A DNA stretch of 64,000 nucleotides from Escherichia coli (GTDB lineage Bacteria; Pseudomonadota; Gammaproteobacteria; Enterobacterales; Enterobacteriaceae). Within the stretch, counting starts at the first letter, position 1. Every line of letters starts with the position of its first letter. Shown here piece after piece: positions 34,301 to 37,300 of this stretch. Position numbers: made by a program. Where the stretch lies: the NCBI RefSeq assembly GCF_029227855.1, contig NZ_CP074356.1. The stretch is one strand, 5' to 3'.

Positions 34301-37300
34301 GTAATTAAGTTACACAAAAGTTAAATTAATACTAACCATCAGTTAAATCATGGCTTTTGCCATTTTTATACTTTTTTTACATCCCGCCCGAAGATTTTTG
34401 CGAAATCTTTGCAGCCAGAATTCTACCCTTCCGGTATCACTTTTAGGCCACTGGAGGTGCACTGTGAGTGCAGGCGTGATAGCCGGCGTGTTGCTGGTGT
34501 TTTTATTACTGGGTTATCTGGTTTATGCCCTGATCAATGCGGAGGCGTTCTGATGGCTGCGCAAGGGTTCTTACTGATTGCCACGTTTTTACTGGTGTTA
34601 ATGGTGCTGGCACGTCCTTTAGGCAGCGGGCTGGCGCGGCTGATTAATGACATACCTCTTCCCGGTACAGCGGGTGTTGAACGCGTACTTTTTCGTTTAC
34701 CTGGCGTCTCTGACAGTGAGATGAACTGGAAGCAGTATCTCTGTGCCATTCTCGGCCTGAACATGCTGGGGCTGGCGGTGCTGTTTTTTATGTTGCTCGG
34801 TCAGCGCTATCTGCCGCTTAATCCACAGCAGTTGCCAGGGCTGTCATGGGATCTGGCGCTGAATACCGCCGTCAGCTTTGTCACCAATACCAACTGGCAA
34901 TCTTATAACGGTGAAACCACGTTGAGCTATTTCAGCCAGATGGCGGGCTTAACGGTGCAAAACTTTCTTTCTGCCGCCAGCGGGATTGCGGTGATTTTTG
35001 CCCTCATTCGTGCATTTACCCGCCAGAGCATGAGCACACTCGGGAATGCCTGGGTCGATCTGCTACGCATCACGTTATGGGTGCTAGTCCCTGTGGCGTT
35101 GTTGATCGCACTGTTTTTTATTCAACAAGGTGCACTGCAAAACTTTCTGCCCTATCAGGCGGTGAATACCGTTGAAGGAGCGAAACAGCTGTTACCAATG
35201 GGTCCGGTGGCTTCTCAGGACGCGATCAAGATGCTCGGCACTAACGGCGGTGGTTTCTTTAATGCCAACTCGTCGCATCCGTTTGAAAACCCAACCGCAC
35301 TGACCAACTTCGTGCAGATGCTGGCGATCTTCTTGATCCCAACAGCGCTGTGCTTTGCCTTTGGTGAAGTGGCGGGCGATCGCCGCCAGGGGCGCATGTT
35401 GCTGTGGGCGATGTCAGTGATTTTTGTCATCTGCGTAGGCGTGGTGATGTGGGCAGAAGTTCAGGGTAATCCTCATCTGCTGGCACTGGGCGCGGACAGC
35501 AGCATCAATATGGAAGGTAAAGAGAGCCGTTTCGGCGTGCTGGTCAGTAGCCTGTTTGCGGTCGTGACTACGGCGGCTTCCTGTGGCGCGGTGATTGCGA
35601 TGCATGATTCGTTTACCGCTCTCGGTGGCATGGTGCCGATGTGGCTGATGCAAATTGGTGAAGTGGTGTTCGGCGGTGTCGGTTCTGGTCTTTACGGCAT
35701 GATGCTGTTTGTCCTGCTGGCGGTGTTTATTGCCGGGCTGATGATTGGTCGTACACCGGAATATCTGGGTAAAAAAATCGACGTACGTGAGATGAAACTG
35801 ACTGCACTGGCGATTCTGGTTACTCCAACACTTGTGCTGATGGGCGCGGCGTTGGCGATGATGACCGACGCCGGACGTAGCGCCATGCTCAACCCTGGCC
35901 CGCATGGTTTTAGCGAAGTGCTGTACGCCGTGTCATCCGCCGCTAACAACAACGGAAGCGCCTTTGCCGGATTAAGCGCCAACTCTCCATTCTGGAACTG
36001 TTTACTGGCGTTCTGCATGTTTGTCGGTCGCTTCGGGGTGATTATCCCGGTGATGGCAATTGCCGGTTCGCTGGTGAGTAAAAAGAGCCAACCCGCCAGC
36101 TCCGGCACGCTGCCAACGCACGGCCCGCTGTTTGTTGGCCTGTTAATCGGCACCGTATTGCTGGTTGGCGCACTGACCTTTATCCCTGCCCTGGCGCTTG
36201 GTCCGGTGGCGGAATATCTCTCCTGATGATATTGAGTGAGCACTGAATATGAGTCGTAAACAACTGGCGCTATTCGAACCAACACTTGTCGTTCAGGCGC
36301 TGAAAGAAGCGGTGAAAAAATTAAACCCGCAGGCGCAATGGCGCAATCCGGTGATGTTTATCGTCTGGATCGGCAGTCTGTTAACCACCTTTATTAGCAT
36401 CGCGATGGCAAGCGGTGCGATGCCTGGCAATGCGCTGTTTAGCGCGGCAATTAGCGGCTGGCTGTGGGTCACCGTACTGTTCGCTAATTTCGCCGAGGCG
36501 CTGGCAGAAGGCCGCAGTAAAGCGCAGGCCAACAGTCTGAAAGGGGTGAAAAAAACTGCCTTTGCCCGCAAGCTTCGTGAGCCGAAATATGGCGCTGCGG
36601 CGGACAAAGTTCCTGCCGATCAACTGCGTAAAGGCGATATCGTACTGGTAGAAGCTGGCGATATTATCCCCTGCGATGGTGAAGTCATTGAAGGGGGCGC
36701 ATCGGTCGATGAAAGCGCCATCACCGGGGAATCGGCACCGGTGATCCGTGAATCCGGCGGCGATTTTGCCTCCGTCACTGGCGGCACGCGTATTCTTTCT
36801 GACTGGCTGGTGATTGAGTGCAGCGTTAACCCCGGCGAGACATTTCTGGATCGAATGATCGCGATGGTGGAAGGCGCGCAGCGACGCAAAACGCCGAACG
36901 AGATTGCCCTGACCATCCTGCTGATTGCCCTGACTATCGTCTTTTTACTGGCAACCGCCACGCTGTGGCCGTTTTCCGCGTGGGGCGGTAATGCAGTCAG
37001 TGTAACGGTACTGGTGGCGCTGCTGGTCTGTCTGATCCCAACCACTATTGGCGGCCTGTTGTCAGCGATCGGCGTCGCCGGGATGAGTCGGATGCTGGGC
37101 GCGAATGTGATTGCCACCAGCGGACGTGCAGTTGAAGCAGCGGGTGACGTTGACGTCCTGCTACTGGATAAAACCGGCACCATCACACTCGGTAACCGTC
37201 AGGCATCGGAGTTTATCCCCGCGCAGGGCGTGGATGAAAAAACGCTGGCTGACGCCGCACAACTGGCTTCGCTGGCTGATGAAACGCCGGAAGGTCGCAG

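Follow-up and report, generated by a model that had tools for sequence, protein, structure and literature searches.

The kdpFABCDE locus of an Escherichia coli strain: a K-12-like KdpE operator with a rare haplotype in its flank

Potassium-dependent regulation of kdp and identity of the locus

When K+ is low, KdpD autophosphorylates and phosphorylates KdpE; when K+ is high, KdpD has phosphatase activity, and existing pumps are inhibited through phosphorylation of KdpB at S162 by the N-terminal domain of KdpD (PMC11018627, PMC5934670, PMC3264566). The regulatory role of S162 in KdpB is described in PMC11018627. Genomic SELEX in K-12 identified the kdpF/ybfA spacer as the single KdpE target (PMC5934670). 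The K-12 operator was characterized by Narayanan et al. (PLoS One 2012; PMC3264566) with a 30-bp duplex, CATTTTTATACTTTTTTTACACCCCGCCCG, which was used for EMSA, AUC and footprinting and which contains the DNase-I footprint from -72 to -50 (Sugiura et al. 1992, as cited in PMC3264566). In the same study, half-sites S1 (TTTATA) and S2 (TTTACA) are separated by 5 bp, and the minimal 21-bp fragment extends 1 bp past S2. In the EMSA reported there, KdpE binding was lost after transitions in the TTTA cores and partly retained after the single-base changes that were tested, at positions 3-8 and 13-20. Textbook features of E. coli, namely the kdp promoter with its KdpE operator, the GTG-initiated kdpF and the gene overlaps, recur nearly base for base at the locus described here, and its discovery value is small.

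The locus was analysed within a 64-kb stretch of E. coli chromosomal DNA (hereafter, the window). A megablast search with positions 34200-34600 gave, in 5,423 of 5,426 complete E. coli genomes, a match that was always annotated as kdpF/kdpA. Identity over this region was 98% to K-12 strains and 100% to EFF60, and strain JNEC-KY178 was base-for-base the same as the window across 33389-48096, which includes the whole kdp operon. The RefSeq gene boundaries of EFF60, K-12 C600 and JNEC-KY178 could be carried over to the window with all lengths unchanged (Table 1).

Table 1. Coordinates of the kdp genes, their junctions and the regulatory elements in the window
Feature	Position	Strand	Remarks
ybfA	33945..34151	-	divergent from kdpF; RefSeq annotation of EFF60
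KdpE operator region CATTTTTATACTTTTTTTACATCCCGCCCG	34361..34390	+	equivalent of the 30-bp K-12 kdpFABC_BS oligonucleotide, 29/30 identical
Half-site S1, TTTATA, then C	34365..34370	+	definition from PMC3264566; invariant in 8 diverse E. coli
Half-site S2, TTTACA, then T here, usually C	34376..34381	+	definition from PMC3264566; cross-species comparison
C->T relative to K-12	34382	+	base directly 3' of S2, position 22 of the 30-mer
C->A relative to K-12, linked to 34382	34391	+	variable GC-rich tract between S2 and the -35 region; just outside the 30-mer
Putative -35-like TTGCGA	34398..34403	+	4/6 to consensus; in a block conserved across Enterobacterales
Putative -10-like TACCCT	34424..34429	+	TAnnCT conserved in 30 Enterobacterales species
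GGAGG Shine-Dalgarno of kdpF	34453..34457	+	6 nt before GTG 34464; identical in K-12
kdpF	34464..34553	+	GTG start, 29 aa; T7A relative to K-12; NCBIfam NF011332, 74.3 bits (cut-off 56)
GGAGG serving kdpA	34541-34545	+	inside the last codons of kdpF
kdpF/kdpA junction	TGA 34551-34553, ATG 34553-34555	+	1-nt overlap, TGATG
kdpA	34553..36226	+	557 aa, ATG start; TIGR00680, 997.7 bits
kdpA/kdpB junction	36226 / 36249	+	22-nt gap
kdpB	36249..38297	+	682 aa, P-type ATPase subunit; TIGR01497, 1277 bits
kdpB/kdpC junction	38297 / 38306	+	8-nt gap
kdpC	38306..38878	+	190 aa; TIGR00681, 330 bits
kdpC/kdpD junction	kdpC end 38878, kdpD start 38871	+	8-nt overlap ATGAATAA
kdpD	38871..41555	+	894 aa, sensor kinase; NF007793, 1837 bits
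kdpD/kdpE junction	kdpD end 41555, kdpE start 41552	+	4-nt overlap GTGA
kdpE	41552..42229	+	225 aa, response regulator, GTG start; F29Y relative to K-12; NF007820, 487.7 bits

None of the six reading frames (kdpF, kdpA, kdpB, kdpC, kdpD and kdpE) contained an internal stop. Because the six genes differed from those of K-12 at 246 nucleotides but at just 28 amino acids, it may be concluded that the operon has been under purifying selection. All six proteins exceeded their NCBIfam equivalog cut-offs with end-to-end matches, so that the four subunits of KdpFABC were each represented by a full-length equivalog. KdpB carried the DKTGT motif (D307, in the context LLDKTGTI) and the regulatory S162 (TGESAPVI), and the context of the GGG filter was retained in KdpA. 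Both partners of the two-component system were of full length with their key residues (PDB 4KNY, 4KFC, 6LGQ): KdpD retained the phospho-accepting H673 in the context AALSHDLRTP, and KdpE retained D52 and the DNA-binding residues R193, R200 and T215. KdpE matched PDB entries 4KNY and 4KFC, and KdpF matched chain D of 6HRA. The proposal of the initial annotation that the whole potassium-limitation system is intact was thereby borne out at the level of frames, equivalog matches and the catalytic and DNA-binding residues checked. Judged from its sequence, the locus is very probably (a probability of about 0.95) an orthologous, functional kdpFABCDE operon that can be expected to work as in K-12. 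It is ordinary apart from a rare haplotype in the operator flank.

Gene junctions and translational coupling

Translation of 34464..34553 confirmed that kdpF starts with GTG behind GGAGG and comprises 29 codons, and its TGA shares a single base, 34553, with the kdpA ATG. The 8-nt overlap of kdpC with kdpD and the 4-nt overlap of kdpD with kdpE followed directly from the coordinates. All positions given in the initial annotation proved correct. The initial annotation had further described a run of overlapping starts and stops through the operon. This description held for three of the five junctions, namely F/A (-1), C/D (-8) and D/E (-4), but not for A/B (+22) and B/C (+8), which are gapped.

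The geometry of the junctions makes the tight translational coupling proposed in the initial annotation plausible. For kdpF and kdpA there is good comparative support, since a Shine-Dalgarno sequence inside kdpF combined with a stop codon that overlaps or abuts the ATG (TGATG or TAATG) was conserved in 26 Enterobacterales loci. The overlaps could instead reflect compact packing and not obligatory coupling, with each gene using its own ribosome-binding site and kdpDE being expressed largely from a promoter of their own in kdpC. Such a kdpDE promoter within kdpC was reportedly described in K-12 by Polarek et al. in 1992. It would also fit this explanation that kdpA, kdpC and kdpE each have a Shine-Dalgarno sequence a few nucleotides upstream (GGAGG, GAGG and GAGGA, respectively), that A/B and B/C lack an overlap, and that the kdpC/kdpD junction varies between genera. 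However, the conserved arrangement at kdpF/kdpA speaks against it, as does the recurrence of the kdpD/kdpE GTGA overlap in Citrobacter and Enterobacter; moreover, the Shine-Dalgarno sequence of kdpD is weak (GGAT), a feature favouring reinitiation by ribosomes that complete kdpC. Packing as the whole explanation is considered somewhat unlikely.

The KdpE operator, the promoter and the rare haplotype

A KdpE box had been placed at 34361-34390 in the initial annotation, with alignment to the K-12 kdp promoter proposed as a check and a change at a position essential for KdpE binding named as the observation that would speak against it. The 30-mer CATTTTTATACTTTTTTTACATCCCGCCCG occupies exactly this interval and equals the K-12 oligonucleotide except at position 22 (34382), where T replaces C. 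Both half-sites were unaltered, TTTA cores included; the match as a whole was not exact. Because this sole difference lies outside the essential TTTA bases, no change at an essential position was found; intact cores in S1 and S2 are what PMC3264566 requires. The half-sites are direct repeats whose starts lie 11 bp apart with a 5-bp spacer, as expected of a KdpE operator. The minimal 21-bp fragment, ATTTTTATACTTTTTTTACAC, was matched at 20 of its 21 positions, the final base being T instead of C. The operator directly precedes the kdpF promoter, with ybfA oriented divergently, and S1 begins 188 nt before the start of kdpA. The 17-mer spanning both repeats, TTTATACTTTTTTTACA, was present once in the window; in dinucleotide-preserving shuffles, about 0.12 matches were expected even with 3 mismatches allowed.

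The -35-like and -10-like elements in Table 1 are named as putative because their spacing of 20 nt is awkward. A sigma-70 consensus scan of 33900-34700 found no promoter, which is no evidence against one, since the kdp promoter is weak and activator-dependent. The half-site numbering of bioRxiv 10.1101/256826 (-67..-62 and -56..-51), given there for a promoter derivative, places +1 at 34432, whereas the conserved TAnnCT hexamer and the conserved A at 34436 point to a start located a few bases 3' of that position. Transcription probably begins at about 34432-34436, a 5-nt range being given because the published numbering is relative.

Several other candidates in the region were rejected. A terminator-like hairpin at 34350-34363, which overlaps the box, was ascribed to chance (2 hits against 1.2 expected; identical in K-12). 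Two longer ORFs, one of 67 aa from ATG 34350 and one of 605 aa from TTG 34409, extend the kdpF and kdpA frames, respectively, in the upstream direction and were discarded because both begin before the transcription start. In an Rfam scan of the whole window, neither the kdp leader nor the operon matched an RNA family.

To place the operator in a wider context, one genome per species was scanned for the exact 17-mer, which gave at least 120 loci. Among the matches listed, 32 of 120 had a KdpA N-terminus downstream, 30 of them in Enterobacterales and 2 in Bacillales. The Enterobacterales among these matches ranged from Escherichia albertii to Proteus, Providencia, Yersinia and Budvicia, and the distance from S1 to kdpA was 183-191 nt in all 30 species. 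When the promoters were stacked, an invariant CATTTTTATACTTTTTTTACAC was followed by about 10 nt that vary freely and then by a conserved block, TTTTgCgAaATCTTTGCA; the TAnnCT hexamer, shared by the 30 Enterobacterales species, and the A at 34436 were likewise conserved. TTTACA was followed by C in 32 of the 32 other species among the matches listed, a sample that was selected for the exact 17-mer and is hence not unbiased. A C likewise comes after S1, so that the repeats can be read as TTTAYAC 7-mers with a 4-nt spacer, and the KdpE half-site may be better described by this 7-mer than by the published 6-mer. PhoB boxes have a similar 7+4 layout.

All sequence elements that the published mechanism requires are present in the window. 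By analogy with the literature, K+ limitation would lead KdpD to phosphorylate KdpE, and a KdpE~P dimer, bound head-to-tail to the two direct repeats (34365-34381), would activate the weak sigma-70 promoter just downstream of them, with transcription starting near 34432-34436. In the resulting transcript, the leader GGAGG would serve the GTG-initiated kdpF, kdpA would be translated from the GGAGG in the last kdpF codons across the TGATG stop/start overlap, and kdpD and kdpE would be translated from starts that overlap the preceding stops.

With C in all 32 other species among the matches listed, the T at 34382 alters a phylogenetically conserved base. The exact 80-mer 34341-34420 was found in 48 of 5,423 complete E. 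coli genomes, and most of the others differed from it by the SNPs at 34382 and 34391. A synthetic version of the K-12 80-mer carrying T at 34382 alone was found in no genome; therefore, the two changes are linked and form one rare haplotype of this lineage. Among eight diverse E. coli, GCTTTTGCCATTTTTATACTTTTTTTACA was invariant, the stretch from GCTTTTGCC through TTTACA was without change, and most promoter SNPs clustered in the 10 nt after S2. The C->A change at 34391 also extends an inverted repeat, AAGATTT/AAATCTT (34391-34397 / 34403-34409), from 6 to 7 bp. Since this repeat lacks conservation in Enterobacter and other genera, it was set aside as incidental.

The two changes most likely have little or no effect, and the one at 34382 is probably near-neutral because it lies outside the TTTA bases essential for binding. 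A different reading is that conversion of TTTACAC to TTTACAT, possibly in concert with the A at 34391, has a measurable effect on KdpE~P affinity or on the strength of the promoter; the haplotype would then be a functional variant, and the K+ threshold or the level of kdp induction would differ in this lineage. A quantitative effect on affinity is conceivable since 34382 lies inside the minimal 21-bp binding fragment of PMC3264566 and is C in the 32 other species, the two Bacillales included, with freely varying bases after it. That C also follows S1 in the TTTAYAC pattern, that the haplotype is rare and that no genome carries T by itself on the K-12 background point in the same direction. On the other hand, only TTTA-core changes abolished binding in the EMSA of that study, the tested single changes at positions 3-8 and 13-20 keeping partial binding, and the double transition A21G+C22T (oligonucleotide kdpFABCBS 9), which was also tested there, is not among the binding-abolishing changes listed in the text of PMC3264566. 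Weak contacts in the S2 flank are suggested by the KdpE-DNA crystal structure (4KFC): according to PMC4832192, a secondary description of it, the protomer bound downstream, at S2, has a wing that 'barely touches the minor groove'. In addition, no part of the promoter is more polymorphic in E. coli than the adjoining tract, the operon is under purifying selection in this lineage, and the bias of the 32-species sample lessens the weight of the conserved C. It is thus quite unlikely that the TTTACAT/A haplotype retunes kdp induction in this lineage, and near-neutrality is preferred. The natural variant would allow a direct test of a role in binding for the conserved C that follows each KdpE repeat.

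A purely accidental origin of the box in AT-rich sequence, with no part in regulation, can be regarded as effectively refuted: although the surrounding region is AT-rich and 88 of the 120 exact 17-mers among the matches listed were unrelated to kdp and came from AT-rich genomes, the window holds one occurrence against 0.12 expected, its placement with respect to kdpA is shared by 30 species, and the box matches an experimentally footprinted site. The locus can serve as a positive control, in that a known regulatory site was correctly found and interpreted from sequence alone.

Comparison with known systems

The closest described system is the K-12 kdpFABC promoter, with which the window shares the half-sites, the 5-bp spacer, the 5' flank CATT, the distance to kdpF, the GGAGG and the GTG start. 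The K-12 operon likewise has the same five junction geometries, the same gene lengths and both GTG starts. The differences amount to the two promoter SNPs (34382 C->T and 34391 C->A) and the 28 amino-acid substitutions in the six proteins.

The kdp promoters of other Enterobacterales (E. albertii, Citrobacter, Enterobacter, Klebsiella, Serratia, Yersinia, Proteus, Providencia, Photorhabdus and others) have the same CATTTTTATACTTTTTTTACA as the window and share with it the 183-191 nt spacing to kdpA, the TAnnCT -10-like hexamer and the Shine-Dalgarno/overlap arrangement of kdpF and kdpA. They differ in having C after TTTACA where the window has T, and the next 10 or so nucleotides and the kdpC/kdpD junction vary between genera.

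Like other OmpR/PhoB-family operators, the KdpE site consists of tandem repeats with a periodicity of about 11 bp, on which a dimer of a winged-helix regulator is arranged head-to-tail (PMC4832192, PMC3264566). Whereas the PhoB pho box takes the place of the -35 region, the KdpE site (about -72 to -50) is located upstream of it. Its repeat sequence is TTTAYA(C), and KdpE has a single genomic target (PMC5934670).

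Conservation of the KdpE recognition sequence

To the loci listed from an exact scan of one genome per species for the 17-mer that spans both KdpE direct repeats of the E. coli kdpFABC promoter, TTTATACTTTTTTTACA, two Bacillales contributed occurrences upstream of kdpA homologues. The distance to the homologue was 311 nt in Neobacillus fumarioli (L086) and 397 nt in Paenibacillus sp. OV219 (L093), and in both loci the 17-mer was followed by C. The presence of the intact E. coli 17-mer upstream of kdpA in these two Bacillales implies that the KdpE recognition sequence is conserved very deeply.

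An inverted repeat, GTGTAA-N5-TTACAC, was found in the AT-rich ybfA-kdpF spacer at 34299-34315. Each arm of the repeat is 1 bp shorter in K-12, where position 34299 is C. We know of no function for this repeat, and it may have arisen by chance.

A possible old rearrangement downstream of kdpE

In K-12 and EFF60, kdpE is followed by the speFL-speF-potE operon and neighbouring pseudogenes, whereas in the window these, approximately 5.1 kb in total, were missing. Here, kdpE was followed by approximately 110 nt of REP-like sequence, a ybfP-like lipoprotein gene and pgm. This junction was matched at 99% identity or more in only 10 of 5,426 complete genomes. Downstream of potE, K-12 carries 138 nt left over from the 3' end of kdpE, which are annotated as a partial winged-helix protein; this suggests that an old rearrangement took place at this site.

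Features of the window
Feature	Position	Strand	Remark
Rhs core protein ORF, 1,383 aa	29546-33697	-	adjoins ybfA; locus extends downstream to ~28376
REP-like sequence	42230-42340		between kdpE and lipoprotein gene
ybfP-like lipoprotein gene	42341-42886	-	164/181 aa
tnpA ORF of IS200-family insertion	48204-48713	-
STnc490 match within the insertion	48672-48795	-	Rfam
Seven tRNA genes	61549-62249	+	clustered downstream of asnB; Rfam tRNA matches

Other loci of the window

An IS200-family insertion of approximately 0.71 kb was located between fur and chiQ (~48097-48810); the otherwise identical strain JNEC-KY178 lacks it. Since no complete E. coli genome covered at least 80% of a 1-kb query across the insertion site, this site appears to be unique to the window's strain among them. 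The tRNA cluster was as expected for this region of the E. coli chromosome.

Beside ybfA lies an Rhs toxin locus of the usual variable kind. JNEC-KY178 also differed from the window here, at positions dispersed over 32630-33388. In an ungapped fixed-offset comparison, identity to K-12 was lost across 24200-33900, and the Rhs ORF was not colinear with K-12 rhsC, which encodes 1,397 aa.
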